Below are positions 15,527-48,383 of a DNA stretch of 62,136 nt, one piece after another. The stretch is taken from assembly GCA_020428815.1 (NCBI GenBank), contig JAGQMC010000048.1, forward strand, positions 1-62,136, written 5' to 3'. The translations under genes and the position numbers were made by a program. Position 1 is the stretch's first letter. Each line of letters opens with the position of its first letter. The DNA comes from Candidatus Kaiserbacteria bacterium. Its GTDB lineage: Bacteria; Patescibacteriota; Minisyncoccia; Phycocordibacterales; UBA918. The notes beneath the pieces are model-generated. The model saw only the letters and a program-made list of their open reading frames with translations, was not told the origin of the DNA and searched no databases.

Positions 15527-17485
15527 ATGACTAATCCTCCTTACTTAGATGGTCTTAACGAACCCCAAAAGCAAGCAGTCTTACACACTGACGGACCGTT
15601 AATGGTGCTGGCAGGAGCCGGTTCGGGTAAGACTCGGGTAATCACACACCGGATTGTTCACCTGATTCACCAAGGGGTTGCTCCTCATAATATTCTGGCG
15701 GTTACTTTTACCAACAAAGCTGCTAAGGAAATGCGTGAACGAGCTGAGAAATTAACTCGTGAGTACTGGCCATCTGATCGAGCGGTGATCGACAGCTTGC
15801 CGGTAGTAACCACCTTTCACGCTCTTGGTGTCAGGCTACTCCGAGAATTCCATGATGCTATGGGACTCCGTCGACACTTTGTTATCTATGATAGAAGTGA
15901 TAGTCAAAAGGCAGTAAAAAAAGCCATTGAAGACGCTGGTTACAACCCAAAAGAATTTGAGCCCCGTAAAATCCTTTCTATGATTTCCCGCGCTAAAGGT
16001 GACGCTATGACTGTGCTTGAGTACAAAGATGCTGCCAACTCTTATCCCGAACAAGTGACGGCGGAAGTCTGGGAAAAATACGATGAAACTTTACGCGCTG
16101 AACAGGCTTTAGACTTTGATGACCTACTGGCAAAGACCCTTAAGTTGCTCAAAAGCAATCCGTCAGTTAGAGAAACGTTACAAAAGCGTTATCAATATCT
16201 ACACGTTGACGAGTTCCAAGACACCAATCGAGTGCAATTTACTATTATGGAATTATTGGCCGGTGAGACTCAAAATGTTTGTGTAGTAGGTGACATTGAC
16301 CAAAATATCTACAGCTGGCGAGGTGCCGACATCAAGAATGTGCTCCAATTTGAAAAACACTTCCCCCGTACTACTACTATTCTGCTGGAAGAAAACTATC
16401 GCTCCACTGGAACCATCATTGCAGCCAGTAATGACGTTATTAAGAAAAACCAAAATCGAGTCGACAAAACTGTTTTCACCAATAATCAAGTGGGTGAAAA
16501 AATTACTCTCTACGCCGGTATGACCGGTGCTGATGAAGCAGAGTACGTAGCTCTGAAAGCACAGACATTGATTGAAGAGGGGGTAGATCCGGCAGCCATC
16601 GCCGTCCTCTATCGTACTAACTTCCAATCACGTTCACTAGAAGAATCATTTTTAAACTTTGGCGTGCCTTACCAACTTCTAGGCACAAAGTTCTATGAAC
16701 GAAAGGAGGTGAAAGACGTATTGTCTTATCTCCGTCTAGCCCTAAACCCAGGCAGTAATGCTGACCTGGTAAGAGTGATAAACAATCCTACTAGAGGTAT
16801 TGGTAAAGTAACCATGCTAAAAGTGGTGGAAGGGAAGCGCGGTGAACTCAACGCTGGAGCGGCAGCAAAAGTAAAAGTTTTTGATGACATCATGACTGAC
16901 ATTGCTGACTGTGCGAGCAAAAAACCACTGTCTGATACCATAAAATTTATAATGAAGCGCAGTGGTTTAGAGGACAACTTAAAAGAAGAGGGGACTGAAG
17001 AAGCACTTGAGCGTATTGAGAACTTACGTGAATTAGTTACCCTAGCTAGTCGCTTCAACGACCTTGAACCAAGCGAGGCAGTTGAACAACTCCTAGAAAC
17101 AGCCGCTCTCCAGAGTGATCAAGATGAAATGAAAAACAAAGAAGAACACAACGCGGTTAGATTGATGACTGTACACGCTGCCAAGGGATTAGAATTTGAA
17201 ACTGTTTTCATAACAGGACTAGAAGAGGGACTGTTTCCACACGAAAGACTAGACGACGGCCGAATTGACCAAGAAGAAGAACGTCGACTGTTCTACGTTG
17301 CTCTGACTAGAGCCAAACAAAAGTTATATTTGACTTACGCCCATATGCGAACAATTTTTGGTAGCCAAAGAATCAATGTCCCTTCATCTTTTTTGAATGA
17401 CATTAGCACCGAACACGTTGAGATGGATGAGCCCGATGGTTTTGGTGGTGGCTCCGGTTACGAAACTACTGTTTATTTGGATTAG
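15527..17485 (+). CDS. pcrA: UvrD/PcrA-type superfamily-1 DNA helicase
   Basis: Motifs AGAGSGKT, TFTNKAAKEM, VDEFQDTN, YRS, VHAAKGLEF, LFYVALTRAK. The ATG at 15527 is preferred over the TTG at 15503. TGcTATAGT (15509-15517) lies 9 nt upstream. Confidence 0.9.
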   Translation: MTNPPYLDGLNEPQKQAVLHTDGPLMVLAGAGSGKTRVITHRIVHLIHQGVAPHNILAVTFTNKAAKEMRERAEKLTREYWPSDRAVIDSLPVVTTFHALGVRLLREFHDAMGLRRHFVIYDRSDSQKAVKKAIEDAGYNPKEFEPRKILSMISRAKGDAMTVLEYKDAANSYPEQVTAEVWEKYDETLRAEQALDFDDLLAKTLKLLKSNPSVRETLQKRYQYLHVDEFQDTNRVQFTIMELLAGETQNVCVVGDIDQNIYSWRGADIKNVLQFEKHFPRTTTILLEENYRSTGTIIAASNDVIKKNQNRVDKTVFTNNQVGEKITLYAGMTGADEAEYVALKAQTLIEEGVDPAAIAVLYRTNFQSRSLEESFLNFGVPYQLLGTKFYERKEVKDVLSYLRLALNPGSNADLVRVINNPTRGIGKVTMLKVVEGKRGELNAGAAAKVKVFDDIMTDIADCASKKPLSDTIKFIMKRSGLEDNLKEEGTEEALERIENLRELVTLASRFNDLEPSEAVEQLLETAALQSDQDEMKNKEEHNAVRLMTVHAAKGLEFETVFITGLEEGLFPHERLDDGRIDQEEERRLFYVALTRAKQKLYLTYAHMRTIFGSQRINVPSSFLNDISTEHVEMDEPDGFGGGSGYETTVYLD

Positions 17486-18080: not shown

Positions 18081-18872
18081 ATGTCAGAAAAATTTGAACA
18101 AAAAAAATCTCTTGGGCAGAACTTTTTGAATTCTGACTATATTCCCAAAAAAATGTGCGAGGCGGCCAACCTGCAAGCTGGGGAAACCGTCTTGGAAATC
18201 GGCCCAGGCACCGGCGCCCTAACAAAAGAACTGCTAGCCAGAGGAGCCAAGGTGGTAGCGATAGAGGCAGATGCCCGGGCGATTTCGACTTTGGAAGAGA
18301 CCTTCCAAAACGAAATCGCCCAACAACAACTTTCTCTCCACCACCATGACGCAAGAGAAATCTATCCAAGCGAATTCAACCTAACTCCACTACAATATAA
18401 AGTAGTAGCCAATATCCCATACTATTTATCTGGCTTGCTCTTCCGCAGCCTACTAGATACAGACTGCCAACCCAACACTTTAGTGTTTTTAGTCCAAAAA
18501 GAGGTAGGGGAGCGCATCGCTCGCGACCAAAAAGAATCCCTATTATCAATGTCAGTTAAAGTGTTTGGTACCCCCCACTACATCACTACTGTAAAAAAAG
18601 GTCATTTTAGCCCTCCACCCAAGGTTGATTCAGCCATAATAGCAGTCAACAATATCAGTCAAGATAATTTTAAGCTGGTCACTCCAAACCACTTTTTCCA
18701 CCTACTTCACTTGGGTTTTGGTCAGAAAAGAAAGCAACTAGTGGGTAATTTAAGTAGGGAATTTAACCGCTTAGACTTGGAACACCTATTTTCTGAGTTA
18801 AATATTGAACAAAAAGCCCGCGCTGAGGATTTGACGCTAAAAAATTGGTTGGATTTGGCCTCTAAGCTATAA
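18081..18872 (+). CDS. rsmA: 16S rRNA (adenine1518/1519-N6) dimethyltransferase
   Basis: KKSLGQNFL, SAM motif VLEIGPGTGALT, and VANIPYY. Confidence 0.9.
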   Translation: MSEKFEQKKSLGQNFLNSDYIPKKMCEAANLQAGETVLEIGPGTGALTKELLARGAKVVAIEADARAISTLEETFQNEIAQQQLSLHHHDAREIYPSEFNLTPLQYKVVANIPYYLSGLLFRSLLDTDCQPNTLVFLVQKEVGERIARDQKESLLSMSVKVFGTPHYITTVKKGHFSPPPKVDSAIIAVNNISQDNFKLVTPNHFFHLLHLGFGQKRKQLVGNLSREFNRLDLEHLFSELNIEQKARAEDLTLKNWLDLASKL

Positions 18873-18925
18873 ACACCATAATCCACAACTTATTCACAAC
18901 TAAGTAAACAGCTGTTGTGAACAGC

Positions 18926-18951
18926 CAGCCGCCCGCTTACGCGGGCGGCTG
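18926..18951 (+). terminator. GC-rich hairpin after rsmA
   Basis: cagccgcccgc-ttac-gcgggcggctg (11 bp). No clear U-tract. It directly abuts the TGcTATACT box of the next gene. Confidence 0.5.
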
Positions 18952-18967
18952 CTATACTTATATTTGT

Positions 18968-19879
18968 ATGGGGAACTACGTCAGCCCTAAGATTCTTGGT
19001 GCAACTATTATCGGGTTTGCGCTCGTTGCTGGTGCTTATGTAACCAGTAATTTTGGTCAACCTCACGAACCTGTAAAAACCGCGACCGCTACTCAAGTTG
19101 TTGAACCAGCACCAGAGAGAATTCAACTTGCCATCACCGACACTGACCAAAATGGCGTTGAGGATTGGCGCGATGCTTTTGTAGACAATGAAGCGGTGGT
19201 AATAAAAAGTGCCCCTCACGCTTCCTACACCCCACCAACTACTGTTACTGGCCAAACCACCATCAACTTCATGGAGGATATTATCACCGCCCGTATGCAC
19301 GCTAGTCCCATCACCCCTAGTGATGATGATATTATCGCCAGAAATGTTGCCGCTCTGGATAGAGTGGCTGAGATAAAACTCTATGACACTACCGATATCT
19401 CTATCATGGAAGAATGGAGCGAAGAAGATGTTGTTAATTACGCCAACACCGTCGCCGCCACAGTGATCAGAAACGATGTAAACGGCTTAGATAGCGAAAT
19501 GCAAATTCTTTACGACATCACTAGAAGAGGGCAGTCTGAACGTATCTCCGAACTAGAGGCGATCCGAGGTGCCTACCAAGGTTTTCGTGATGAAACCTTG
19601 CTGATTCCAGTACCCAAAGAACTAGCCAAAGCACACTTGGACCTTATCAATACCTACCAAGCACTTTATGAGGACCTTGACGCTATGATTGCCAGTATTG
19701 ATGACCCACTACTCGGTCTAGTCCACATCAAGCGTTACGACGATGATGCTTTGGGTCTGGTAATGGCCGTACACAATCTTTACGATGCCCTGTTACCTTA
19801 CGCCAGTTTGTTTACCGCTGAAGATCCCGCTTTATTATTTGCCGCCTTTACTCAGGAATTCCCCCTTAATAACCAATAG
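18968..19879 (+). CDS. hypothetical signal-anchored protein, first gene of the T4SS-like cluster
   Basis: The internal ATG lies after the terminator hairpin and gives MGNYVSPKILGATIIGFALVAGAYV (TM helix). TGcTATACT (18950-18958) lies 9 nt upstream. Confidence 0.65.
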   Translation: MGNYVSPKILGATIIGFALVAGAYVTSNFGQPHEPVKTATATQVVEPAPERIQLAITDTDQNGVEDWRDAFVDNEAVVIKSAPHASYTPPTTVTGQTTINFMEDIITARMHASPITPSDDDIIARNVAALDRVAEIKLYDTTDISIMEEWSEEDVVNYANTVAATVIRNDVNGLDSEMQILYDITRRGQSERISELEAIRGAYQGFRDETLLIPVPKELAKAHLDLINTYQALYEDLDAMIASIDDPLLGLVHIKRYDDDALGLVMAVHNLYDALLPYASLFTAEDPALLFAAFTQEFPLNNQ

Positions 19880-19882
19880 CCT

Positions 19883-20824
19883 ATGGATAGATTTTTTAAT
19901 TTACTACGAAAAAGTTTAGTAGCCACCATGGTGGTAATGCTTACCTTTGTAGTCTCTTATGTACCACACGAGCACAACAAAGTACCTGAAGCGGAAGCAC
20001 AGTGGGCAGTAATTGATGCGGCGCACATAAAAGTGAGCGCAGAAAATACCTTTGCCAATCTTGCACGATGGGCATTGGATATATACCAAGACTGGAAGGA
20101 GAGCATTGGTGATGGTTTGGCTTGGTATATGGCTAAAGCCATCATTAGCAACATGATTCGCGAGTTAACTATGTGGATTCAAAGTGGTTTTCAGGGGCGA
20201 CCGATGTTTATCGAAAACTTGGGTGATTTTATGTTGGAGACGTCCGACCGAGCTATCGGTGAATTTATTGACGGGGAGCTAGGCGATCTTGGGTCTTTTA
20301 TATGTTCACCATTCAAACTAGATATTCTGGCGGCCATTGCTAGTGACTACAGCGCCTCTCGTGACAAACCACCATCCTGTACCCTAACCGGCGTCATCGA
20401 TAATCTAGCTGGCTTTACTGAAGGTACCCAAGGTAGCTTTTCTAAGGGTGGCTGGGATGACTGGATGGATATCACCTCTAACCCAGGGCAATACACCGCC
20501 TACGGCAGCTACCTAGAGGCTGAGAGTGAGGCGGGAGTACGTATTGCCAACGCTCGCAACCAAGTGTTGTGGGAAGCAGACATGGGTAATGGTTTCTTCT
20601 CGGCCAAAGAGTGTAAGGAGGCCGAAGGAGCTGGTGGTTACACTCAAACCATTTGTAATATTGTCACTCCTGGTAAACTAATCGAGGACGCCTTATCTGA
20701 AGGTCTCGACTCAGACCGAGAATCCTTGGTGGCCGCTGATGAAATCAACGAACTAGTTGGGGCCCTTATAGACCAAGCTGCCAACCGTGTCTTCACCGGA
20801 GCCAGAGGGGTGTTAGGTATGTAG
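19883..20824 (+). CDS. hypothetical signal-anchored secreted protein (T4SS-like cluster)
   Basis: 313 aa with an N-terminal TM helix (LVATMVVMLTFVVSYV) and 4 Cys in the extracytoplasmic part. It starts 3 nt after the upstream stop. Confidence 0.7.
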   Translation: MDRFFNLLRKSLVATMVVMLTFVVSYVPHEHNKVPEAEAQWAVIDAAHIKVSAENTFANLARWALDIYQDWKESIGDGLAWYMAKAIISNMIRELTMWIQSGFQGRPMFIENLGDFMLETSDRAIGEFIDGELGDLGSFICSPFKLDILAAIASDYSASRDKPPSCTLTGVIDNLAGFTEGTQGSFSKGGWDDWMDITSNPGQYTAYGSYLEAESEAGVRIANARNQVLWEADMGNGFFSAKECKEAEGAGGYTQTICNIVTPGKLIEDALSEGLDSDRESLVAADEINELVGALIDQAANRVFTGARGVLGM

Positions 20825-20835
20825 AAAATTATTTT

Positions 20836-22953
20836 ATGAGAGCATTCTTTAGCAACAATTTAACCAGAAACAATCTGCTGCTATCAGCGTTGGTTTTAGG
20901 GTTGCTAATAGTACCAAACTTAGTTTGGGCCAGTGGTGTTAAAGGTTTTATTTGGGGGATTGTTGTCGGCTTCTTTGGCGCCTTTCTTGCCATTGGCGGC
21001 ATCATACTAAACACAGGCATCAATGACTTTGTAATTGGTTTCGGAGACTTGTTTCAAAATAAAGGTATTGGATTGGCCATCAACACCGTATGGTTGAATG
21101 TGAGAGATTTATTTAATATCACTTTTATCTTTGGTTTGGTCTATATCGGTTTTAAAATGATTCTTAACGCCGATGACTCTAATACTAAAAGGTGGTTAAT
21201 CAACTTGATTATAGCAGCACTATTAGTCAATTTTAGTTTATATTTTACAAAATTTATTGTTGATTTAAGCAATATTGCCGCTACACAAATTGCTCAAACC
21301 GGATTCCTAACTGCGGCCGATGATGAGAATTCACCATTTTCAGAACCGGGAGATGTTTTGGTGTCTGACACATACATGAACAGTTTGGGTCTAACTTCTT
21401 TTTATGGTGATGGGGGGCTAAAAGAAAATATAGGTGTTATGGATGACGGATCGTGGTTGCAGATATTTGCTGCTATGATTTTCTTTATCATTGCCACTTT
21501 TGTATTTGCGGCTGGTGGACTGTTGCTAATTATACGTTTTGTTGCCTTACTATTGTACATGACTCTATCGCCACTAATGTTTATCGGTTGGGTCTTCCCT
21601 CAGCTACAGCGCTATACTTCTATGTATTGGAGTGGCTTTTTAAGTCGCGCCTTTATGGCTCCTTTGTATATATTTTTCTTATATATAGGAAGTAAGATTC
21701 TTTATTCCTACACCAGAACCGTTTCTGAACCAAATCTAGCTGGTGCATTGAATAATAAAGTGGAGTATGATTTGGCGACCAGCTTAATGCCGTTTGTAAT
21801 AGGTTGTATTGTACTTATGGCAGCCATAACAATTTCTCAAAGAATGAGTGATCAAGCCGCTTCTGGCTCTATGAGAATTGGTCAAGCAGTTACCAACCGT
21901 ACCCGTCGAGTAGTTATTGGGGCACACAAGAGAGGAGCGGCCCCCCTTTCTGTTGTAGCCAGGGGTGGTTCTAATCGTGTTGGAAACTTCACTAACCGTA
22001 AGCTTGACCAATGGCAAAAGGATTCCGGTTGGCGAGGTAAGATAGGTAGAAACGTTTTAGTGTCAGACACTGTGGGTGGCGCAGCCACAAAACTCAAGAG
22101 TAATAAATTTGGACTACAAGATACCGCTGACCAAGTGAAAAGCAAGAAAGATGCACTTAATAGGAAGTATCAATCTTACCAAGATATTAAAGCGGCTCAG
22201 GCTGCCTCCGCAAATCCAGGCGCACCAAACCATGCTGCAATTATTGCTAAGGGGGTAGAAGAGGCAAACAAGATGTCACCAAAAGAGTTAGCAGCTATGC
22301 AAAGGAACGACAAACAAACCTTTGAGTACATTGTGGGGCAAATCAACGCAAGTAAGTATGACAACTTGATGGAAAGCGATGATTTTGATCCGACCCAAAA
22401 AGCTGATATGTTGGCTCAGAGGCAAAAAGCAATCAATTCAACCATTAGACAAAACGGGGTGCTTATTACTGAAAATCTCCAAAAGATGTCAATTAAGCAA
22501 ATTGAGACAATGGGAGACGCTTTTGTTAGAAGCAACGCACATCTCTTTACTGATTCACAGATGGACGACCTTAAAAAGAGTAAGATATTTACAGATAACC
22601 AGACGGGAGACTATAACACCTTACGAAGAAACAAACTTGCCAGTGATGCTTGGGGTGCCAACCAACAACAAATATTTAACAACAACTCTACGAATACCCC
22701 TGGTGTATTTGACAATAAAAAGAAACCGTCAGAAATTGCAAAATTACCATTTAGAGCTTTCTTTGACGCAAATAACAACCCTAATCCATACGCAATTTCA
22801 CAAATTGATGGCAGTGTGTTAGAAGAAATCTTTAACAAGAAAACTATGTCTGTTTCGGAACGACAGCAGTTGAAAACTGAGGTTATGAGATCGGGCACTC
22901 CTGATGCACAGAATTATTTAAACTCTCAACAAGGTAGAAGAAACTGGTCGTAA
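20836..22953 (+). CDS. polytopic membrane protein, VirB6/TrbL-like, with a long soluble C-terminal tail
   Basis: At least 7 predicted TM helices in the first ~330 aa, then ~370 aa of hydrophilic sequence. The position and topology match T4SS VirB6-type channel subunits. Confidence 0.55.
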   Translation: MRAFFSNNLTRNNLLLSALVLGLLIVPNLVWASGVKGFIWGIVVGFFGAFLAIGGIILNTGINDFVIGFGDLFQNKGIGLAINTVWLNVRDLFNITFIFGLVYIGFKMILNADDSNTKRWLINLIIAALLVNFSLYFTKFIVDLSNIAATQIAQTGFLTAADDENSPFSEPGDVLVSDTYMNSLGLTSFYGDGGLKENIGVMDDGSWLQIFAAMIFFIIATFVFAAGGLLLIIRFVALLLYMTLSPLMFIGWVFPQLQRYTSMYWSGFLSRAFMAPLYIFFLYIGSKILYSYTRTVSEPNLAGALNNKVEYDLATSLMPFVIGCIVLMAAITISQRMSDQAASGSMRIGQAVTNRTRRVVIGAHKRGAAPLSVVARGGSNRVGNFTNRKLDQWQKDSGWRGKIGRNVLVSDTVGGAATKLKSNKFGLQDTADQVKSKKDALNRKYQSYQDIKAAQAASANPGAPNHAAIIAKGVEEANKMSPKELAAMQRNDKQTFEYIVGQINASKYDNLMESDDFDPTQKADMLAQRQKAINSTIRQNGVLITENLQKMSIKQIETMGDAFVRSNAHLFTDSQMDDLKKSKIFTDNQTGDYNTLRRNKLASDAWGANQQQIFNNNSTNTPGVFDNKKKPSEIAKLPFRAFFDANNNPNPYAISQIDGSVLEEIFNKKTMSVSERQQLKTEVMRSGTPDAQNYLNSQQGRRNWS

Positions 22954-23018
22954 TAAAAATGGGGATAGGGAGCGTTGGCTCCCTTTTTCTTTTGCTTAGA
23001 CATGTATAATGTTGTTAC

Positions 23019-23435
23019 ATGCGATTTGAAGTTCCTCAGTTTATTGAAATCGAAGACAAAATTTTTGGTCCTTTTACCTGGCGGCAGTTTTTGTACCTCG
23101 GTGGTGGAGTTGGTTGGGCAGTAATCAGTCTAATCTATTTTCCGTTTATAATCTTTGTCTTGACCGGACTGCCAGCAGCTTTGCTAGCCGGCGCGCTATC
23201 TTTTTACCCCATCAACAATCGCCCGTTTTCATACTTTATTGAAGCAATTTTTAATTATCTGACTAGCCAAAGGTTATACTTATGGAGAAGGGGAGCTGAT
23301 GTGGTGTACAAAGGGGGAGAAAGATCAGACACCATTCCTACCACCCCCGTCCAACCCGTCGTAAAACACAAACAAACTGACCTAACCTCCTTAGCTAGAA
23401 AGTTAGAATTACAAGCTATTCAAAAATCTGAATAA
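23019..23435 (+). CDS. PrgI-family (VirB3-like) small membrane protein
   Basis: MRFEVPQFIEIEDKIFGPFTWRQFLYLGGG followed by two TM helices, the characteristic PrgI N-terminus. It sits directly upstream of the VirB4-type ATPase region. Confidence 0.7.
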   Translation: MRFEVPQFIEIEDKIFGPFTWRQFLYLGGGVGWAVISLIYFPFIIFVLTGLPAALLAGALSFYPINNRPFSYFIEAIFNYLTSQRLYLWRRGADVVYKGGERSDTIPTTPVQPVVKHKQTDLTSLARKLELQAIQKSE

Positions 23436-23436
23436 T

Positions 23437-24078
23437 ATGCCTCAAGCCAAAGCCGCCACCCAAGATTTTGTCTCCGTTAGAGATATAAAAGAAAATGTTG
23501 TCATCCAAAAAGACGGCCAGATGTTGATGGTGCTGTTGGCGTCCTCGATTAACTTTGCTCTTAAGTCACTGGATGAACAACGAGCTGTCTTAGCCCAATT
23601 CCAAACCTTTCTCAACACCTTAGATTTCACCCTACAAATCTACGTTCAATCTCGTCGTTTAAATATCGCCCCTTACTTGGAGGTTCTACACGGCCTAGAG
23701 AACAAACAAGACAACGACCTGATGCAAACTCAGCTTCGTGAATATATTGAGTTTATTCGCGGCTTTACTGATAAGGTCGACGTAATGAGCAAGAGTTTCT
23801 TTGTGGTGGTACCTTATAGTCCAACCAAAATAAATATTTCCAAAGGCATCACCAATCTCTTCACTCCTGGTCAAAAAACTGCCGCCCTGCCAGACGATAT
23901 GAGGTTTGAGGAACACCGGATTCAACTAGAGCAAAGAGTAGGGGTAGTGACAGATGGTTTGGCCCGGGTGGGAGTCCGAACCATCACTCTTGATACCGAT
24001 GATTTGGTCGAATTCTACTACCACATCTACAACCCAGGGGACAGCACTGGGTCCGCCCCAATAATTGATAAAGTATAG
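23437..24078 (+). CDS. hypothetical protein resembling a stand-alone VirB4/TraC N-terminal domain
   Basis: QDFVSVRDIKENVVIQKDGQMLMVLLASSINFALKSLDEQRAVLAQFQTFLNTLDFTLQIYVQS follows the N-domain pattern of Gram-positive VirB4 proteins. There is no P-loop. Gaps to both neighbours are 1-2 nt. Confidence 0.5.
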   Translation: MPQAKAATQDFVSVRDIKENVVIQKDGQMLMVLLASSINFALKSLDEQRAVLAQFQTFLNTLDFTLQIYVQSRRLNIAPYLEVLHGLENKQDNDLMQTQLREYIEFIRGFTDKVDVMSKSFFVVVPYSPTKINISKGITNLFTPGQKTAALPDDMRFEEHRIQLEQRVGVVTDGLARVGVRTITLDTDDLVEFYYHIYNPGDSTGSAPIIDKV

Positions 24079-24080
24079 CT

Positions 24081-25880
24081 ATGGGAATTTTTGATTTTGC
24101 CAAACCAAATAATGCCAATCAGCGCATTGACAGCGTTAAGGATAATTTAATGACTTTAACTGATGTGATTGCGCCATCAGCAGTTAGTGTCACCCCTAAG
24201 AATATTAATATTAGCGGAGTCACCACCCGTGTCTACTACGCCGTGTCCTATCCCCGCTTTTTAAATGATGGTTGGATGGAACCAGTCTTAAACCTCACCA
24301 AAGAATTAGACATCTCAATATTTATTCATCCCATCGACACCGCTGACACCTTAAAGAAATTTCAAAAGAAAGTGGCTGAGGTACAAAGTCAGATTAGTCT
24401 TAAAGAAGAAAGAGGGGAAGTGCGTGACCCAGAACTAGAAGCTGCCTACCGCAACCTAGAAGAGCTGCGCGACAAGCTTCAACAAGCCGAAGAAAAGCTC
24501 TTTAATGTTGGTTTTTATTTGGCGGTGTATGGTCAGGATGAAGCAGTGGTCAATCAAGCGGAAAATGATATCCGAGGTATTTTGGATTCTCGCATGATTG
24601 CGCTTAAACCAGCTCTATTCCAACAAGAACAGGGCTTTAAGAGCATCGCCCCTCTCTCACACGATGAACTTTTGGTCCATAGCAAGTTTAACTCAGCTCC
24701 TTTATCTAGCTTTTTTCCTTTTACCTCATTCGATTTGACTTCTGACCAAGGGATTCTCTATGGCATCAACCGACACAACTCATCATTAGTCTTATTTGAC
24801 CGCTACAGTCTCACCAACTACAACTCGGTGACTTTTGCCACTTCAGGAGCCGGTAAATCTTATACTCTTAAATTAGAGATTCTCCGTTCTCTGATGTTTG
24901 GTACTGAAGTAATCGTAATTGACCCCGAGCGGGAATATGAATACTTAGCAGAAGCTACTGGTGGTCGCTTCTTTAATATTTCCCTCTCGTCTGACCACCA
25001 CGTCAATCCGTTTGACCTGCCACCACCAGCCGAGGATGAGGACCCGCGCGATGTGTTGCGTACTCATATTATTGAACTAGTTGGCTTGTTCCGATTAATG
25101 TTGGGTGGGCTGTCACCCGAAGAAGAGACTTTGGTTGATTTGGCGATTCAAGAAACCTACGCTCTTAAAGACATCACCGGTGATGTGAACTTTGCTGACA
25201 TGGAGCCACCGCTTTTGACCGACTTCGAGATGGTATTAGCTGGCATGGAAGGCAGCACCTCGCTTATTTCTAGGCTTCAAAAGTACACTTCAGGAACTTG
25301 GTCTGGCTTCATGAACCAACCAACCAACGTCGACATCAACCAAAAGTTTATGGTGTTCTCTCTGCGAGATATGGAGGATGAACTGAAGACGATTGCCATG
25401 TACATTATTACCAACTTCATTTGGGGCTCAATTCGTCGACGTCTAGCTAAGCGTCTGATGGTAATTGATGAGGCTTGGTGGATGATGAAATCAGAAGATA
25501 CAGCCTCTTTTCTCTTCAGCTTAGCCAAGCGCGGTCGTAAGTACTATCTCGGTATTGCGACTATCACCCAAGATGTAGATGATTTTCTTCGTTCTCCTTA
25601 TGGAGTACCGATGATTACCAACTCTTCGATTCAATTTTTGATGAAACAATCACCGACCGCCATTGATAACATCCAACAAACCTTCAATTTAACTGACGAA
25701 GAAAAATTATTATTGCTAGAATCCAATGTAGGGGAGGGGATATTCTTTGCTGGCCTCAAGCACGTTGCTATTAAAGTTATCGCTTCTTACACCGAAGATC
25801 AGATCATCACCTCTGATCCATCACAACTGCTACAAATCAAAGCGGCGCGGGCAGAACTTAGAGCAGCAAGAGAAGGATAG
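24081..25880 (+). CDS. virB4: VirB4/TraC/ConE-type T4SS ATPase
   Basis: Walker A FATSGAGKSYTLK, Walker B RLMVIDEAWWMM, and YYLGIATITQDVDDF. Its N-domain (VIAPSAVSVTPKNINISGVTTRVYYAVSYPRFLNDGW) is typical of VirB4. Confidence 0.9.
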   Translation: MGIFDFAKPNNANQRIDSVKDNLMTLTDVIAPSAVSVTPKNINISGVTTRVYYAVSYPRFLNDGWMEPVLNLTKELDISIFIHPIDTADTLKKFQKKVAEVQSQISLKEERGEVRDPELEAAYRNLEELRDKLQQAEEKLFNVGFYLAVYGQDEAVVNQAENDIRGILDSRMIALKPALFQQEQGFKSIAPLSHDELLVHSKFNSAPLSSFFPFTSFDLTSDQGILYGINRHNSSLVLFDRYSLTNYNSVTFATSGAGKSYTLKLEILRSLMFGTEVIVIDPEREYEYLAEATGGRFFNISLSSDHHVNPFDLPPPAEDEDPRDVLRTHIIELVGLFRLMLGGLSPEEETLVDLAIQETYALKDITGDVNFADMEPPLLTDFEMVLAGMEGSTSLISRLQKYTSGTWSGFMNQPTNVDINQKFMVFSLRDMEDELKTIAMYIITNFIWGSIRRRLAKRLMVIDEAWWMMKSEDTASFLFSLAKRGRKYYLGIATITQDVDDFLRSPYGVPMITNSSIQFLMKQSPTAIDNIQQTFNLTDEEKLLLLESNVGEGIFFAGLKHVAIKVIASYTEDQIITSDPSQLLQIKAARAELRAAREG

Positions 25881-25942
25881 TGAGACTCAGGCGTAGCACC
25901 TCGGCTACACCACCAATCTATTCTGATATAAAAAAACCTGGG

Positions 25943-25991
25943 GTATACCCCGCCCTAACTTTTTTCAAAAGTTAGGGCGGGGTATACTTTT
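25943..25991 (+). terminator. strong intrinsic terminator after virB4
   Basis: 21-bp perfect stem gtataccccgccctaactttt (25943-25963) / aaaagttagggcggggtatac (25967-25987), followed by tttt. Confidence 0.8.
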
Positions 25992-25995
25992 CTAT

Positions 25996-27045
25996 ATGCC
26001 CGCACCACAGCCGCTCAACGAGCAGTTTAACCAAAACGCTAGTTTACAACCCAACTACAAACAGGTGGGGGTGCGAAATGTATCAGTTGAAAAAAACCGT
26101 GGTGGGGCCAGTAACAACCCCAAGACCACTAGCCAAGTGGAAACTAAGCGACGGTTTGCTGCTAATGACCCAAGGTATGACAATCATACTAGGAATGTAA
26201 ATGTGGAAGGGAGACAAGGTCGGCCGACGACGGATGCAAAGTTTAGACAAAGCTACGCAGAAAAAGGCCTCCAACCACAAGGGATAAATCAGAAAAAGAA
26301 AAGTGGTGTCATACATCATTCTGAGAAAAAAATCGACAACCACACATTCAGCAATAATGTTCACCAACTGTACAAAACTCTTGAGGATTTAAAACAGGGT
26401 GATATTGATTCTGCCCTCGATGAGGCTTTGGATGCACTTGATGCTGATGATGAGGCAATGGAAAGAGAGGCTAAAAAAAGAGGTGCTCTTGTAAAAACAT
26501 TAAAAGCTTATTTGCTATACCGCGCTTATAAAAGAGTCACCGCACTTAATATTAAAATATTTTCTGTCGGACTTTATTTGTGGTCACTAGTCCAAATACC
26601 AATGGCCCTTTTTAGCTTGGTTGCTTTTGGGCTTACCGCTGCTGTTTACCAATTGGATGAATTATTGCAGCCCCAGACAAAGGACGGTATGTTAGTTACC
26701 GCTACAAAAAGTGTTGCCGGTTTTTTTGTTGAAAAAGCAGTAACTGTAGGTAGTTACATAAACGACGTTGTGGAGGGTATGTTCAACATAGATATATCCA
26801 TATTTCTACCTGATAATATGTTTATGATTACCTGGATTTTTATTATTGGCTTTTTTGGGATATTTCAATTATTCTTAATGTGGCTATTATATAAATTAGT
26901 ACTATTAAAGCCACTAGATGGAAAATCTTCTGGTTTAAAATACAGCACTCTTCTATTAGCTATGGTTGGTTATAGCATCCCTCTACTCAACCTATTTCCA
27001 TGGTTTACTGTTTGGGCAGCGGCTGTGTGGGTGAGGCCAAAATAA
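25996..27045 (+). CDS. hypothetical membrane protein (basic, disordered N-terminal half and 4-5 C-terminal TM helices)
   Basis: 349 aa. Residues 1-165 are N/Q/K/R-rich, followed by hydrophobic helices (IFSVGLYLWSLVQIPMALFSLVAFGL; FMITWIFIIGFFGIFQLFLMWLLY; LLLAMVGYSIPLL). Confidence 0.6.
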   Translation: MPAPQPLNEQFNQNASLQPNYKQVGVRNVSVEKNRGGASNNPKTTSQVETKRRFAANDPRYDNHTRNVNVEGRQGRPTTDAKFRQSYAEKGLQPQGINQKKKSGVIHHSEKKIDNHTFSNNVHQLYKTLEDLKQGDIDSALDEALDALDADDEAMEREAKKRGALVKTLKAYLLYRAYKRVTALNIKIFSVGLYLWSLVQIPMALFSLVAFGLTAAVYQLDELLQPQTKDGMLVTATKSVAGFFVEKAVTVGSYINDVVEGMFNIDISIFLPDNMFMITWIFIIGFFGIFQLFLMWLLYKLVLLKPLDGKSSGLKYSTLLLAMVGYSIPLLNLFPWFTVWAAAVWVRPK

Positions 27046-27049
27046 AAAA

Positions 27050-27073
27050 CACCGAACATTCCATTGTTCGGCG
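27050..27073 (-). terminator. terminator of the minus-strand small gene
   Basis: ccgaaca (27052-27058) / tgttcgg (27065-27071). On the minus strand it is followed by ttttttatt (plus 27041-27049). Confidence 0.55.
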
Positions 27074-27094
27074 CCAATAATCAGAAGTTCAGCA

Positions 27095-27454
27095 CTAATT
27101 CCCAGTGCTGGCTATGTCAGGCCTTTGATAAATGTGACATAAATATGTCATCCCGACTTGGACCCTTCTATCTTTTGGGCCAACAAGGTTGTTCATGCGC
27201 CTGAAATTCTCTTCAGTTCCGCCGCAATGTCGGACAAACTCAGAAATAAGCTCTGGGCTCTCTGCCCTTAAAAAGCGAGCGTTGTAGTGAACATTTCTAC
27301 AGTTTGTACAGGCGTATTCAAGTGAATCCATATCTACTTTCTCCACCTGTATTTTGAAGCCAAAATCGTAGCTGATTGCTGGGGTACTTTCCAACGCCAG
27401 CATGAAGGCTGTGATGAGTGCGGCCAACATCGCCGCGAGTTTTTTGCTAGCCAT
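27095..27454 (-). CDS. hypothetical small secreted 4-Cys protein, opposite strand inside the cluster
   Basis: The internal Met gives a signal-peptide-like MASKKLAAMLAALITAFMLALES. The mature part has CTNC...HC...C. The C-terminal NFRRMNNLVGPKDRRVQVGMTYL is weakly LysM-like. Confidence 0.5.
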   Translation of the reverse strand: MASKKLAAMLAALITAFMLALESTPAISYDFGFKIQVEKVDMDSLEYACTNCRNVHYNARFLRAESPELISEFVRHCGGTEENFRRMNNLVGPKDRRVQVGMTYLCHIYQRPDIASTGN

Positions 27455-27732
27455 ATCGGCCTCCTCGCGCAAAGCGCTTACAATATTTGAAATGTATTGA
27501 CGAATGTACGTCAGAACTTTTGGCACATACCGCGTGTACCACTACTTTTTTTATACCATAACAGGAGAGCTATGCAAGGATATGGGTTACTTGTAAATGG
27601 TCAAAAATGGACAAGGAACGATCTTCTCCTACGCTACACTTCGGCTGGAGTCGCACTCCTTCTCAGTTTCTAGTGTGGTCATTTTTGCCCACAAACTCTT
27701 TACAGCCTCATTTTCAACTCTTTCCATCTGTT

Positions 27733-28710
27733 ATGATTATAATAATGAGGTTAATAACCACCCTATTTTTATTGATATTAGTCTTCACCGCTAGCCCGGC
27801 GGCTGCGCAGCTAAGTCCTTATGATTTAGCTGGTCGAGCAGTAGCGCCAGAGATAAGACTAGACCCTGAATTCCCAGAACCAAACGAGGAAGTCACCGCC
27901 ACTCTGACTAACTTTAATGATTACGCAATCAATACTACTATCACCTGGTTACTAGACGGGGTAAAAATAAGTGACACAAATAACGCGCTAAATATCTCCT
28001 TCAATGCTGGAGCTGAGAGGAAAACTCAAACCATCTCAGCTGTGATTGACCGGTCTAGTGGCCGCACTATTGCCAATCAGGACCTTAGACCGGCTTATCT
28101 AGATATTATTGTTGAACCACAAACCCACACCCCCAGTTTCTACCAAGGACGAGCTTTGCCGAGTAAAGGTAGTTTGGTAAACCTAACTGCTCTTCTAAGT
28201 GACAGTGACCTCTACCGCAACGGCCTCCTTTACACTTGGCGCGTTGGTCGAGTGGTTCTGAGTGGGGGACCAATCTACAACAATAACAAAGTGTCTTTTG
28301 AGGTGCCGTACGGACGAGATGTGGTCATTTCATTAGACATCACTACTCCAGATGGTATTACTGTAGCTGAGAAAAATATTATTGTGCCCTCAGTATCACC
28401 TTACCTGCGTTTTTACGAAGCCAGTTCATTGTTTGGCTTAAGAACCATCCCAACCACCAACTTAGTTTTGATTGGTAACAGCACAGCGGTACGAGCCGAA
28501 CCTTACCACCTAGACTCTAGAGTTTATAACGCACCGAGTATTGCTGAATGGGGAGTATCTGGTCAAGATTATTCTGACGTAGGTAGCAACCCTTACGAAA
28601 TCACCCTACAGAGAACCGACCAGACCGGCAGCAGCCGACTGACTTTTCAAGTGCGTGATATCCGAGAATTATTACAAGGAGCTAAGGGTAGTCTTAATTT
28701 GAGTTATTAA
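27733..28710 (+). CDS. hypothetical secreted beta-rich protein (T4SS-like cluster)
   Basis: Signal peptide MIIIMRLITTLFLLILVFTASPAAAQ (start 27733 or 27745), then repetitive Ig-like beta-strand sequence. The upstream 42 codons of the track ORF are not signal-like. Confidence 0.65.
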   Translation: MIIIMRLITTLFLLILVFTASPAAAQLSPYDLAGRAVAPEIRLDPEFPEPNEEVTATLTNFNDYAINTTITWLLDGVKISDTNNALNISFNAGAERKTQTISAVIDRSSGRTIANQDLRPAYLDIIVEPQTHTPSFYQGRALPSKGSLVNLTALLSDSDLYRNGLLYTWRVGRVVLSGGPIYNNNKVSFEVPYGRDVVISLDITTPDGITVAEKNIIVPSVSPYLRFYEASSLFGLRTIPTTNLVLIGNSTAVRAEPYHLDSRVYNAPSIAEWGVSGQDYSDVGSNPYEITLQRTDQTGSSRLTFQVRDIRELLQGAKGSLNLSY

Positions 28711-28712
28711 TT

Positions 28713-29900
28713 ATGAATCGCACATTACTTATCATCATCGGTGTAGTCATGGCTTTGGTACTTATCGCAGTCTGGGTGTACCTACTGTTCTTCAACCAAC
28801 CGGGGGGTGGTGACGATAATTTTGCAGATTTAAATTTTGCTAACACTGACCGAGAAGTAGTAGACGATACTTCGCCCACCTTTTCCGAAGAGGAAGCGTT
28901 GGTGGAAGTATCTGATGATAGTGTTTTAAAACAATTAACCACCGAACCAGTGATTGGTTTTCAAGAAGTGGCCGCAACCGCTAGTTCCACTCCAGTAGTC
29001 TATTACCTAAAACCAGGTACTGGACACATGATGTCGATTGACTTAGAAACCGGAGAAGAAGAAAGAGTCTCTGGTACCACCATCCCAAATGCGAGTCGGG
29101 GAGTAATCTCAATTACCGGACAATTAGTCTTGATTCAAGCTGGTCAAGGTCACCAAGCTGAATTGTTACTGGGTGAATTAAGTAGTAGTAGTGAGGAGTT
29201 AAAGTTGACCACCTTAAGTGAAACAGTTTTAGATTTTACCATCACTACAAATAATGAATTGCTTTACTTAGAAGGAGATGGTGGCTACACCACCATTAAA
29301 CAATACCAACCAGAAACTAAGACCACTAAGACCATCCTAACCATCCCATTTGCTGAAACAGCTATTACCTGGGGTAATGAGGTGGGGGGAGTGCACTACA
29401 TCTACCCCAAGGCTAGTGGGCAATTGGAGGGCTACCTGTACCAAGTAGCTAACGGAAAATTCTCTAGATTGCCAGTAGCTGGTTATGGTCTAACTGCTTA
29501 TGGTACCGCTGATTATGTAATCATCAGCCGGCAACTGACTGGTCGTTACCAATCAGCCATCTTCAACCGAACCTTAGATCAGACCAAACCACTAGAGATG
29601 GCTCTATTACCTGAAAAATGTGTTCTGGAAAACACTAAGTCTAGTTTTGTTTGTGCCGACTCGACCACCGCCCTTAAGACTGATATGCCAGATTTGTGGT
29701 ATGAGGGTGGTGTGTCTTACGTCGATAATTTCTGGCGTATTGACACCGCCTCGTCTTCAGCCAGTTTGTTGCTTGATACTAAAAAAGAATCGGGTCGAGA
29801 ATTAGATATTATAAACCTCGTCACCGGCCAAAACTCAGGTGATATTTACTTCCAAAACAAGAACGATCAAGCCTTGTGGTTATACCAAATTAGTCGTTAA
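28713..29900 (+). CDS. hypothetical signal-anchored protein, beta-propeller-like (T4SS-like cluster)
   Basis: 395 aa with TM helix LLIIIGVVMALVLIAVWVYLLF, then repeated strand-turn patterns. It starts 2 nt after the upstream stop. Confidence 0.65.
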   Translation: MNRTLLIIIGVVMALVLIAVWVYLLFFNQPGGGDDNFADLNFANTDREVVDDTSPTFSEEEALVEVSDDSVLKQLTTEPVIGFQEVAATASSTPVVYYLKPGTGHMMSIDLETGEEERVSGTTIPNASRGVISITGQLVLIQAGQGHQAELLLGELSSSSEELKLTTLSETVLDFTITTNNELLYLEGDGGYTTIKQYQPETKTTKTILTIPFAETAITWGNEVGGVHYIYPKASGQLEGYLYQVANGKFSRLPVAGYGLTAYGTADYVIISRQLTGRYQSAIFNRTLDQTKPLEMALLPEKCVLENTKSSFVCADSTTALKTDMPDLWYEGGVSYVDNFWRIDTASSSASLLLDTKKESGRELDIINLVTGQNSGDIYFQNKNDQALWLYQISR

Positions 29901-29921
29901 GGGCTTTGGTAAAATAAAGAT

Positions 29922-31166
29922 ATGATTTTAACACTACTAGTCAGCACCATCTTACTTACCCCAGCTGTGGTTTTCGGGGCTGATTATGTGCCCTTAGTGG
30001 GATTACCAGGAGTAGATGAGGGAGGTAATTTTGATAATTTTATCCAAACCCTCTACATTCTTTCCATCACCATTGCCGCCTTATTGGCAGTGATTAAGAT
30101 TGTGATTGCTGGGGTGAAGTGGATGTTGAGTGATGTGGTCACCTCAAAGGCTAATGCAAAAAAAGATATTAATGGTGCGCTGATTGGTTTGTTGGTGGTA
30201 CTAGGAGCAGTGGTAATCTTAACAGTAATCAACCCTGACATTACTAAAGTAGACCTAACCCTTGAACCAACCGAGATTGAAATCCCACCTGACACCGGCC
30301 CAACCGACGAAGAGCTGGCTGAGCAATTAGCTGAAATACAAGTGCAGGCGAGAGAAATCAATAAAACCTGTGACGAAGATGGTATTTGTACCAAGATTCC
30401 GGAAGCGGGTGATGTAACTGGGTATGAGCGACAGGAAATTACCAACCCAACTCAGGCTGAAGCTGAGGCAAATAATGGATCACGGGGGGATATTAATTCT
30501 GGTGGTTGGGGACCAAGTGATGAAGAAATTGCGGCTGAAATTGCTGCAGCTGAAGAAGCGGCTGAAGCTGAAGCTGTAGAAGCGGAGGAGGAGTTTATTA
30601 CCAATCATCCTCCTGGTGAAATGGAACCAATACCGGTAGTTATTGTTGGTAATACCACTGATACAAATGTTAACGAGAGTGGTGGTTATAACACATCTTG
30701 TGGAGATGCTGCGTGTTGTCCTGATGGTTCAAGACTTATGATAGGGGGTACAGGTGGGGGATTTTGTGTACCAGATGAAATTAGCGGTAACGATGTTGGT
30801 GACCTCAGTCAATATCCACCCGCAGAAACATCCACCTCAAATAATACTAATGGGACTAGCGCGGCCCAACTCTACGCCGAAGTATGTGCCCAACAAGGAT
30901 CCAACCTAACCGTCCAGTCGCTTTCAGGGGGTGGTTTCCGGTGTGTTTCAACTATCACTGGTGAGACAGCTTGTGAAGGTAGCGGTTTGAGTTTAGGTGG
31001 CTTACCAATCTGTGATCCAGTTAGTAACAACAATAGTTCTGTAAATACTGTGGATAATAGTAATTTAGTTGATTACTTTCAAGCCCTTAACGCCTTGAGA
31101 ATATCAATGTGTGGAGTGGATGGTCAGGCAATTTACTCTAATGGTACTGTGGTTGGTTGTAAATAA
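29922..31166 (+). CDS. T4SS pilin-like (VirB2/TrbC-type) N-domain fused to a ~300-aa acidic linker and Cys-rich C-terminal region
   Basis: Signal peptide (TPAVVFGADYVPLVGLP), then two helices (LYILSITIAALLAVIKIVIAGVKWM; GALIGLLVVLGAVVILTVINP), the hairpin typical of T4SS pilins. This is followed by an E/A-rich linker and 12 Cys. Confidence 0.6.
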   Translation: MILTLLVSTILLTPAVVFGADYVPLVGLPGVDEGGNFDNFIQTLYILSITIAALLAVIKIVIAGVKWMLSDVVTSKANAKKDINGALIGLLVVLGAVVILTVINPDITKVDLTLEPTEIEIPPDTGPTDEELAEQLAEIQVQAREINKTCDEDGICTKIPEAGDVTGYERQEITNPTQAEAEANNGSRGDINSGGWGPSDEEIAAEIAAAEEAAEAEAVEAEEEFITNHPPGEMEPIPVVIVGNTTDTNVNESGGYNTSCGDAACCPDGSRLMIGGTGGGFCVPDEISGNDVGDLSQYPPAETSTSNNTNGTSAAQLYAEVCAQQGSNLTVQSLSGGGFRCVSTITGETACEGSGLSLGGLPICDPVSNNNSSVNTVDNSNLVDYFQALNALRISMCGVDGQAIYSNGTVVGCK

Positions 31167-31233: not shown

Positions 31234-31959
31234 TTAACGATGACGTTTTACATACAACTCTTGGGCAATCATTGTTAAATTGCTCACAAAGAAATATAAC
31301 GCGATAGCAGCAGAAATGGAGTAAGCAATAAAAGTAATAAAAATTGGCATCACATAACGCATCTGGGTTTGCATATTACGAGCAAAATCATCTTTTAAAC
31401 TCGGGGCAGCCTCTGGGTCACGCGGGGGAAGTTTGGGCATAGAGTAATTTACATGAATGAACTGGGTTACTCCAGCCGCTAGGGCTAGTAGCAAACTACG
31501 ACCAGTCATGTCTACCAAGCCAATAAAATTCATAGTGACCTCAACTGGGGCAGCCACAAAAGAGTAGAGTAAATCAACATTAATATCAGGCAGTGGCACA
31601 CCACCACCCTTTGACACCGCGAAATAAAGAGCAATGATGATTGGAATTTGTAGTAAAATCAAAAACACGCTAGCTAGAGGGTTCATGCCCGCTTCTTGGT
31701 AGACTGCCATCATTGCCTGAGCCTGCTCTTGTCGATCGTCTTTATGTTTTTCACGAATCTCTTTTAGTTTTGGTTCTATCTCACGCATTATTTTTTGCGT
31801 TTTAACCGCCTTAATTGAAACCGGGAAAAGAACCAACTTCACTAATAGAACGGTGGCTATAATTGCCAATCCTACATCGCCCGCTGGAATTACATCAATA
31901 AAAAAGACCAGTGTGTTGTAAACTGGGTCGAAGAAAAAAGTGTGCCATATATTTACCAT
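31234..31959 (-). CDS. yidC: YidC/Oxa1-family membrane insertase (short form)
   Basis: 241 aa with motifs GLAIIATVLLVKLVLFPVS, MREIEPKLKEIREKHKDDRQ, NPLASVFLILLQIPIIIALY. It sits in the rpmH-rnpA-yidC arrangement. Confidence 0.9.
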   Translation of the reverse strand: MVNIWHTFFFDPVYNTLVFFIDVIPAGDVGLAIIATVLLVKLVLFPVSIKAVKTQKIMREIEPKLKEIREKHKDDRQEQAQAMMAVYQEAGMNPLASVFLILLQIPIIIALYFAVSKGGGVPLPDINVDLLYSFVAAPVEVTMNFIGLVDMTGRSLLLALAAGVTQFIHVNYSMPKLPPRDPEAAPSLKDDFARNMQTQMRYVMPIFITFIAYSISAAIALYFFVSNLTMIAQELYVKRHR

Positions 31960-32471: not shown

Positions 32472-32497
32472 AAAAAAGCTCGTTAGCGAGCTTTTTT
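32472..32497 (-). terminator. hairpin overlapping the rpmH stop (possible attenuator before rnpA)
   Basis: agctcg-ttag-cgagct, flanked by a6 and t6 runs. Confidence 0.45.
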
Positions 32498-32632
32498 AAC
32501 CGTTAGTTGAGCGCGTCCTTTACGTCGCCGAGCTTGTAGGATTTTCTTTCCTGTAGCTGTGGCAGAACGAACCAAGAAACCGTGGGTAGTGGCGCGCTTT
32601 CTTTTACTTGGTTGGTAAGTTCTCTTTGTCAT
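32483..32632 (-). CDS. rpmH: 50S ribosomal protein L34
   Basis: Not in the ORF track (49 aa). My translation is [49 protein letters not shown], a canonical L34. Confidence 0.9.
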
Positions 32633-32850: not shown

Positions 32851-32876
32851 GCAAATTACCTTTCGATTTGATTAGT

Positions 32877-48351: not shown

Positions 48352-48383
48352 CTAAAAGAAGTATAAAAAGTTAAAATCCTTAG

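Follow-up and report, generated by a model that had tools for sequence, protein, structure and literature searches.

A cluster of open reading frames (ORFs) at positions 18968-31166 of a 62-kb stretch of Candidatus Kaiserbacteria DNA (62,136 nucleotides, referred to here as the window, the coordinates of which are used throughout) can with good confidence be regarded as a vertically inherited, chromosomal type IV secretion system (T4SS) of the Patescibacteria type, which has the arrangement found in Paceibacteria, is derived from MPF-FATA systems, is not mobile and likely performs contact-dependent transfer between an epibiont and its host. The identities of its core parts, their topology, the fixed chromosomal position between rsmA (18081-18872) and yidC (31234-31959, minus strand), and the strong conservation of the locus can be read directly from the sequence. 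The system was already described between 2023 and 2025, so that the locus is a rediscovery and not a new kind of system; its residual novelty lies in lineage-specific exported proteins and an extended pilin.

For the comparative part of this work one genome per species was scanned (588 relatives), and the best 80 loci were examined with a flank of ±10 kb. Presence counts, expressed as fractions of 81 loci, were obtained by tblastn and ORF mapping, and the identity medians that are compared between genes refer to the 32 loci in which all markers were present. The Pfam scan of the window covered all of its 45 ORFs with a length of 150 aa or more, as well as rnpA and the antisense ORF H (see below).

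Core components and layout of the cluster

The cluster is composed of ten co-directional plus-strand ORFs, designated A to G and I to K, and one small minus-strand ORF (H). Of the eleven genes counted in the original prediction ten are thus co-directional, the eleventh (27095-27526) being encoded on the minus strand. Along the ten plus-strand ORFs the intergenic gaps measure 3, 11, 65, 1, 2, 115, 687, 2 and 21 nt. Plus-strand terminator-like hairpins are located between C and D (22967-22984) and 3' of F (25943-25987, with a perfect 21-bp stem), and another one is found 3' of G (27048-27075). The hairpins after C, F and G suggest that the cluster is organised in about four transcription units, namely A-B-C, D-E-F, G and I-J-K.

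The 599-aa product of F (24081-25880) is a VirB4 ATPase of the CD1110 / MPF-FATA type. It matches the NCBIfam model NF045971 (VirB4 CD1110 family) with 349.8 bits (cut-off 325), as well as the Pfam family PF19044 (P-loop_TraG; E-value 1.1e-25), and both motifs on which the original prediction had based this assignment are present, FATSGAGKSYT containing the Walker A sequence TSGAGKS and MVIDEAWWMM the Walker B sequence VIDEAW. F covers positions 176-733 of the CD1110 model, and the ORF E (23437-24078), which ends 2 nt ahead of virB4, covers positions 2-178 of the same model. E also matches the NCBIfam models VirB4_plasma (9.1e-10) and TrsD (1.7e-4) and the TraC-like family PF26593, and thus corresponds to a TrsD/TraC-like protein, i.e. 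the VirB4 N-terminal domain specified by a separate gene. Since E and F are complementary on one VirB4 profile, the ATPase is encoded in two pieces, as is the case in pGO1-type Gram-positive systems, and this split is kept throughout, E being a separate ORF in 81/81 loci. More than 8000 homologs of VirB4 were retrieved, the one with 100% identity bearing the name Candidatus Kaiserbacteria; identity is 85-90% in the top 120 clusters, every one of which belongs to the candidate phyla radiation (CPR; Parcubacteria/Paceibacteria sources), and the nearest plasmid-borne VirB4s are Gram-positive CD1110-family proteins with 27-36% identity.

The membrane components located upstream of the ATPase were identified in the same manner. 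D (23019-23435), a PrgI/VirB3-like membrane hairpin protein as had been predicted, matches Pfam PrgI with 32.4 bits (gathering threshold, GA, 27), and is present in 80/81 loci with a median identity of 46%. C (20836-22953) encodes a polytopic VirB6/TrbL-like channel protein (an 'extended VirB6') with a hydrophilic tail of about 370 aa. It barely passes the Pfam TrbL threshold (26.3 bits, GA 25.9), its orthologs match TrbL_3, and it was detected in 63/81 loci, its conservation being limited to the transmembrane (TM) half. The VirB6/TrbL assignment in the original prediction is thereby upheld, but of the at least seven TM helices that it counted the hydropathy scan gives six strong TM peaks.

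Some relatives carry an additional soluble ORF of 109-227 aa between the VirB6 and PrgI genes (at 8290-8751 in locus L082, 8222-8905 in L084, 8285-8848 in L085, 14510-15085 in L087 and 11227-11673 in L088), the products of which share the motif 'RTMA.D...SSTQEAILK'. The window is without this ORF; at that position it has the 65-nt spacer with the terminator-like hairpin, in which tblastn shows no remnant.

K (29922-31166) specifies a 414-aa protein with a VirB2/T4SS_pilin-like hairpin followed by a long C-terminal extension. Its TM peaks at residues 1-19, 44-62 and 85-103 correspond to a signal peptide and a two-helix hairpin (approximately residues 38-103). The window copy matches T4SS_pilin (PF18895) over residues 38-103 with 23.6 bits, which is under the GA of 26.6; all 20 K orthologs tested (20/20) match this family, however, with a best E-value of 4.2e-9, and three of them also match TrbC/VirB2. 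The profile matches consequently support the predicted pilin assignment at the family level. Taken over the profile hidden Markov model searches that had been proposed as a check, VirB4, PrgI and TrbL pass their cut-offs and the pilin is supported through its orthologs.

The extension of K comprises about 310 aa, is acidic, contains 12 cysteines (Cys) and is not conserved, and about 26% of the protein is conserved across loci. Among 55 K orthologs the extension has a median length of 124 aa and in 33/55 reaches 100 aa or more; the number of its Cys is mostly even, and its sequence is again not conserved. In this respect K departs from VirB2/TrbC pilins, which are small mature proteins of about 70-120 aa with no added domain.

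Conservation of the locus and its exported proteins

The order rsmA-A-B-C-D-E-F-(G)-I-(K)-J-(K)-yidC-rnpA-dnaA-dnaN was found in nearly all of the best 80 of the 588 species-level genomes, and this recurrence indicates that the cluster is more than a chance grouping. The same block is present in five further contigs with precomputed Pfam calls, that is, with independent gene calls. Upstream, the collinear block extends to genes for PNPase, a protein of about 603 aa without assigned function, a DksA-like protein, ComM, M23/LysM, PcrA and RsmA. The proposed core-chromosome location, with rsmA on one side and yidC-rnpA-rpmH-dnaA on the other, is the same in 80 species, and the accessory genes A, B, I and J, as the proposed synteny comparison reveals, are conserved companions of VirB4 across most of these.

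Among the membrane and motor components, median identities amount to 70% for VirB4, 51% for TrsD, 47% for PrgI and 29% for VirB6, and those of the exported parts to 33% for B, 26% for I and 26% for J, as compared with 66% for PcrA, 61% for DnaA, 48% for RsmA, 47% for YidC and 39% for DnaN among the core markers. Given the values of 70% for VirB4 and 61% for DnaA, the motor appears more constrained than the replication initiator; judged from these medians, VirB4 is under purifying selection and the exported parts evolve fast.

With regard to the seven ORFs that had been considered unassignable, one (E) is the TrsD/TraC-like protein described above, and the others remain without a firm family. 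A (18968-19879, or from a GTG at 18917) encodes an N-terminal TM anchor followed by an extracytoplasmic all-alpha bundle that belongs to no known family. It was matched by tblastn at the same position in 35/81 loci, and its 179 homologs, which share a conserved DxDxNGxxDW motif, are all from CPR and all annotated as 'hypothetical'. The AlphaFold2 (AF2) model of A (pLDDT 88.1, pTM 0.69) consists of a TM helix followed by helices within residues 93-294. A Foldseek comparison of this model with the Protein Data Bank (PDB) returned nothing at E<0.2, the best matches being generic four-helix bundles at E>=0.23, and a profile search of the PDB gave no significant match. A VirB8-like (NTF2) identity was considered for A and rejected on account of the confidently predicted all-alpha bundle.

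B (19883-20824) encodes a secreted or anchored protein with four Cys, directly upstream of the VirB6-like C. Judged from its alignment, it is the best-conserved accessory protein: it is present in 54/81 loci and has 216 homologs, all of them from CPR, most orthologs being longer (median 553 aa), and an alignment of 72 sequences contains 21 invariant columns, including the four Cys, and the motifs WINSGFxGxPxF, TPG and ADEINE. The AF2 model based on these 72 sequences is mostly helical and of low confidence (pLDDT 64.5, pTM 0.40); Foldseek found no match to it in the PDB at E<0.6, and the profile search of the PDB produced spurious matches only. The structural comparison that had been proposed for the unassigned ORFs has thus, for A and B, yielded a confident fold for A, a poor model for B and a PDB relative for neither.

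The only link of B to a known family is that to DUF4141 (PF13605), the domain of a protein whose gene adjoins traJ, the VirB6 homolog, in conjugative transposons of Bacteroides. It was obtained at the family level, where 5/72 homologs match over about 27-50 N-terminal residues (best E-value 1.2e-7). The window copy itself gives an E-value of 0.13 (12.1 bits, GA 30), 19 B orthologs from the loci gave nothing relevant in Pfam and no DUF4141 match at E<=0.01, and a tblastn search of plasmids with the DUF4141-like region returned nothing. Together with the short distance of 11 nt that separates B from the VirB6-like gene downstream of it, this link makes B a possible VirB5/TraI-position (DUF4141) analogue, which may be taken as a lead and not as a finding. 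B resembles the first members of the pairs TraI (DUF4141)-TraJ of Bacteroidetes, VirB5-VirB6 and TrbJ-TrbL in its position upstream of a VirB6-like gene, its export and its helicity. It differs from TraI/VirB5 in that it shows no structural match to VirB5, and in that its four Cys and WINSGF core have no counterpart in known families.

I (27733, or 27607, to 28710) encodes a secreted protein with Ig-like beta-sandwich repeats and a signal peptide ending in SPAAAQ, and is present in 74/81 loci. Its profile matches the Ig-like domains of phage Hoc (E-value 1.8e-4); 5/19 orthologs match BiPBP_C, and single ones match PKD_3 and Ig_3. J (28713-29900), which is present in 68/81 loci, is an N-terminally anchored, extracytoplasmic protein with a conserved C-terminal Cys pair. 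It is probably a TolB-like beta-propeller, as its profile matches the TolB propeller (E-value 7e-4) and single orthologs give scattered matches to PD40, DPPIV_N and DUF6923.

The remaining two ORFs are located between VirB4 and I. The product of G (25996-27045) has a basic disordered N-terminal half followed by about four TM helices, according to the hydropathy peaks, and has no family match in Pfam or NCBIfam. It was detected in 14/81 loci only, close relatives possessing homologs with 25-32% identity, and in 19 loci I is directly 3' of VirB4; on the basis of this distribution G is a variable, optional slot. H (27095-27526), whose membership of the cluster is uncertain, lies antisense in the 687-nt gap between G and I and encodes a signal peptide and four Cys. 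No homolog of H was found by tblastn across the loci. Minus-strand counterparts at the same position, with 24-27% identity, are nevertheless present in L084 (12903-13163), L087 (19062-19448) and L088 (15556-15909), and share with H the LysM-like motif 'GxT.EE...LN.L', which H has in addition to a Cys pair. The best PDB profile match of H is a LysM protein, at a non-significant E-value of 0.087.

In the spacer between rsmA and A (18879-18898), just 5' of A, two adjacent DnaA-box-like 9-mers were observed, TAATCCACA and TTATTCACA, and an 11-mer, ACTTATTCACA, is common to this spacer and the region upstream of dnaA (32745-32755). At least one DnaA-box-like 9-mer is found in the same spacer in 6/23 relatives, corresponding to 1.39/kb as compared to a background of 0.38/kb. 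Window-wide, 22 DnaA boxes were observed versus 18 expected, i.e. no enrichment. Regulation of A through DnaA boxes was rejected as a claim, the local enrichment being modest and too weak for this purpose.

Genomic surroundings and signs of mobility

Upstream of the cluster the window encodes ClpB-like protein, M14 peptidases, a XerC/D-type recombinase, PNPase, ComM/YifB, an M23+LysM peptidase, PcrA and RsmA, and downstream YidC, RnpA, L34 (rpmH at 32483-32632), DnaA (32868-34262), DnaN, PBP1, TyrRS, RuvABC, a PilB/GspE-type ATPase and PolA, the other sizeable ORFs also being of the housekeeping type. The Pfam and NCBIfam scans detected no relaxase, coupling protein, VirB11, VirB9 or VirB10 in the 62-kb window; VirB7/8/9/10-like proteins were not found, nor was a CedA or ComB partner set matched. 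Among the Pfam-annotated neighbours in L082-L088 there is likewise no relaxase or type IV coupling protein (T4CP). The absence of these components from the window, as had been reported, is thereby confirmed, as is that of att-like ends, the direct or inverted repeats round the cluster being only short chance repeats. The reported absence of an integrase has to be amended, as a tyrosine recombinase is encoded at 4993-5904 on the minus strand; it is of the XerC/D type and housekeeping-type, and is located 13 kb off the cluster.

The sole tRNA gene of the window (tRNA-Lys, at 48383), which was also the only result of the Rfam scan, is 17 kb away from the cluster. Comparison of the composition of the cluster with its flanks, which had been proposed as a further check, gave typical tetranucleotide z-scores of -0.9 to 0, so that its profile is not foreign; the only atypical stretch in the window is the AT-rich dnaA-dnaN region. 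In view of the absence from the window of a relaxase, a coupling protein, VirB11, att-like repeats and an odd composition, the cluster is not an integrative and conjugative element (ICE), and the opinion that it does not look like a conjugative element, to which fixed synteny and the lack of an adjacent tRNA can be added, stands. None of the findings that had been named as contrary to the original prediction was made, that is, neither a lack of profile support for its core assignments, nor an ordinary ICE context in relatives, nor a loss of the accessory ORFs from the ATPase.

Further features of the window were noted alongside. The M23+LysM peptidoglycan peptidase (14131-15243, minus strand) is encoded 3.7 kb upstream of the cluster on the other strand, and together with the PcrA-type helicase (15503-17485) directly precedes rsmA, both here and in 4/4 relatives whose flanks are long enough; M23/LysM domains have been noted in some VirB1-like candidates (PMC12102498). 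A 595-aa ORF at 10144-11931 is without Pfam or NCBIfam match, and is conserved in L086 and L087, where it measures about 603 aa and is flanked by the genes for PNPase and for a DksA/TraR-like zinc-finger protein. Finally, a 643-aa protein specified by 51102-53033 contains three spondin-like thrombospondin type 1 repeats and a CARDB domain, a combination that amounts to an adhesion module of eukaryote-like type, which is unusual in a bacterium; the protein may be a surface adhesin.

Comparison with described systems and proposed function

The original prediction had ranked the cluster as the best candidate in the window for an undescribed machine, an opinion which has to be abandoned because the locus matches the systems of Wang et al. 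2023 (PMC10633639) and Quiñonero-Coronel et al. 2025 (PMC12102498). In the latter study T4SSs were catalogued across Patescibacteria, including Paceibacteria, with a VirB4 clade related to MPF-FATA and with TrsD, PrgI/VirB3, VirB6 and VirB2-like pilins near virB4; the Paceibacteria locus is close to dnaA, dnaN, rnpA, ksgA and rpmH, and its order in their Table S3, VirB6-VirB3-TrsD-VirB4-VirB2, is the same as in the window (PMC12102498). The window is thus like this arrangement in its VirB6, VirB3/PrgI, TrsD, VirB4 and PF18895 pilin, in its gene order and in its neighbours, neither having a relaxase or T4CP nearby, and there is no difference in kind. Non-homologous neighbours are left grey in Fig. 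6 of that study, whereas for A, B, I and J synteny, topology and fold hints are provided here.

Wang et al. 2023 described an origin-proximal T4SS (SEML1_0006-0019) in Southlakia epibionticum, which transposon sequencing (Tn-seq) showed to be essential for epibiotic growth, and which resembles Gram-positive conjugative systems and includes pilins, neither a coupling protein nor a relaxase being recognisable in it (PMC10633639). It shares with the window VirB4, an adjacent TrsD-like protein, PrgI, a VirB6-like protein, T4SS_pilin, a location next to the origin and a monoderm-type composition. In Southlakia virB4 is directly followed by lysozyme-like and peptidase genes, and the cluster also encodes an NTF2-like (VirB8-like) protein, a pair of very large VirB6-like proteins and an array of six small pilins. 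The window differs in having a single pilin with a long extension, the set A/B/I/J, and no in-cluster hydrolase or NTF2-like protein.

VirB4, PrgI and VirB6-like proteins are also found in Gram-positive MPF-FATA systems (TrsC-TrsD-TrsE of pGO1/pSK41, CD1110 of C. difficile CTn2 and PrgH-PrgI-PrgJ of pCF10). As in pGO1, the TrsD-like N-domain protein is separate, and neither system has an outer-membrane core (VirB7/9/10). The cluster differs from these systems in having no recognised relaxase, T4CP, oriT, VirB1-type hydrolase, VirB8-like protein or adhesin, in its VirB2-like pilin, which Gram-positive systems are without, in its core-chromosome position, and in its VirB4, which shares at most 36% identity with theirs.

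By analogy with these systems, we infer that the cluster functions as a translocon or pilus for interaction with a host. PrgI would tether TrsD and the VirB4 motor, as a VirB4 hexamer, to the VirB6 channel; VirB4 would pull pilin from the membrane and power the assembly of a pilus or conduit, and A, B, I and J, along with the pilin extension, would make up the portion that crosses the wall, is exposed at the surface and contacts the host cell. Contact-dependent transfer between epibiont and host, either as export of effectors or as import of host molecules, would be the most likely activity, rather than conjugation, which is unlikely as the function of the cluster. A pilus or conduit role has also been proposed for the Patescibacteria T4SS in a 2025 review (PMC12857230).

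Several points weigh against this interpretation. No cell-wall hydrolase (VirB1-type) domain is present in any ORF of the cluster, and no VirB8-like protein either, and the large extension of K might be incompatible with polymerisation. The roles given to A, B, I and J are putative ones, drawn from topology, weak fold hints and synteny. Essentiality is known only from one Saccharibacterium, which has other accessory genes (lysozyme-like, NTF2-like and six small pilins; PMC10633639); for the Paceibacteria the interpretation is a sequence-based one, and a 2024 perspective calls the role of the T4SS 'completely unknown' (PMC11665869). T4CP-like genes are moreover present in most Patescibacteria genomes, mostly distant from virB4 (PMC12102498), and, the negative result covering the 62-kb window, the source genome may encode a T4CP elsewhere.

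According to one alternative, which we hold to be improbable, the VirB4/VirB6 core would build a pilin fibre, or display a variable domain anchored to the pilin, for adhesion only and with nothing being translocated. The conservation of the pilin in the cluster, the hypervariable, disulfide-rich extension on most of its orthologs, the fast evolution of the extracytoplasmic components and the absence nearby of a substrate-recruiting T4CP are all in agreement with such an organelle. Against it stand the extended VirB6-like channel protein, which is kept everywhere, and the type IV pili of Saccharibacteria, by which adhesion is already provided (PMC12857230).

A similarly low probability is assigned to a DNA-uptake machine, that is, a reversed T4SS that would import host or environmental DNA or nucleotides in the manner of H. 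pylori ComB or archaeal Ced. The original prediction had suggested a DNA-uptake or cell-contact apparatus on the strength of ComM and PilB being encoded in the window, and ComM and PcrA are indeed upstream in conserved synteny. ComM is syntenic in 3/3 close relatives with longer flanks (it is situated outside the 10-kb flank, which makes its tblastn count of 1/81 loci uninformative), but both it and PcrA belong to a long collinear housekeeping stretch, and this adjacency is weak evidence. The lack of a relaxase or T4CP nearby makes export of processed DNA unlikely, and acquisition of nucleotides through the T4SS has been raised as a candidate role (PMC11665869). VirB4 does weakly match the CedB model (1.1e-9), though with 37.4 bits against a cut-off of 700 (CedD E-value 0.075), while the conjugative CD1110 model gives 350 bits. 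The cluster has no ComEC/ComEA-type partner, and in Southlakia competence depends on type IV pili (T4P) and ComEC, comEC being dispensable, as its loss abolishes competence without affecting viability, and the T4SS being essential (PMC12857230).

That the cluster is a degenerate or domesticated conjugative element (an ICE remnant), moving DNA by means of a relaxase and coupling protein encoded elsewhere, is highly unlikely: its VirB4 does belong to a conjugative family whose nearest non-CPR members reside on Gram-positive plasmids/ICEs (27-36% identity), many Patescibacteria genomes contain T4CP-like genes at other sites and a few have relaxases (PMC12102498), and a XerC/D-type recombinase is encoded at 4993-5904, but the rsmA-yidC slot is the same in 80 species, flanking repeats and tRNA are absent and the composition is native, VirB4 is conserved beyond DnaA, the recombinase is distant and of housekeeping type, and relaxases are rare, the published dataset having yielded only 109 of them, in 103 genomes and seldom near virB4 (PMC12102498).

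Within the preferred interpretation of a host-directed Patescibacteria T4SS, a more specific proposal is made tentatively. The Paceibacteria could possibly have swapped the surface and wall-crossing components VirB1, VirB8 and the adhesin for a conserved extracytoplasmic module of their own, consisting of A, B, I and J and of a VirB2-like pilin which would display its hypervariable, disulfide-rich extension along the pilus as a determinant of host recognition. In such a module A may be a helical-bundle anchor and B a pilus-associated factor in the VirB5/TraI position. If true, this would represent a monoderm T4SS that bears a pilus and in which pilin and adhesin are fused, an architecture undescribed for any T4SS.

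Among the recent additions to the T4SS superfamily, that of the Patescibacteria is regarded as one of the most intriguing, being a conjugation-derived machine that has been kept at the replication origin by a huge radiation of ultrasmall, host-dependent bacteria. To this the present locus adds a motor whose constraint is above that of DnaA, four exported partners that are fixed to this motor, and a variable, Cys-rich pilin extension as the usual condition, the exported proteins and the pilin extension being the obvious places in which determinants of host specificity may be sought.

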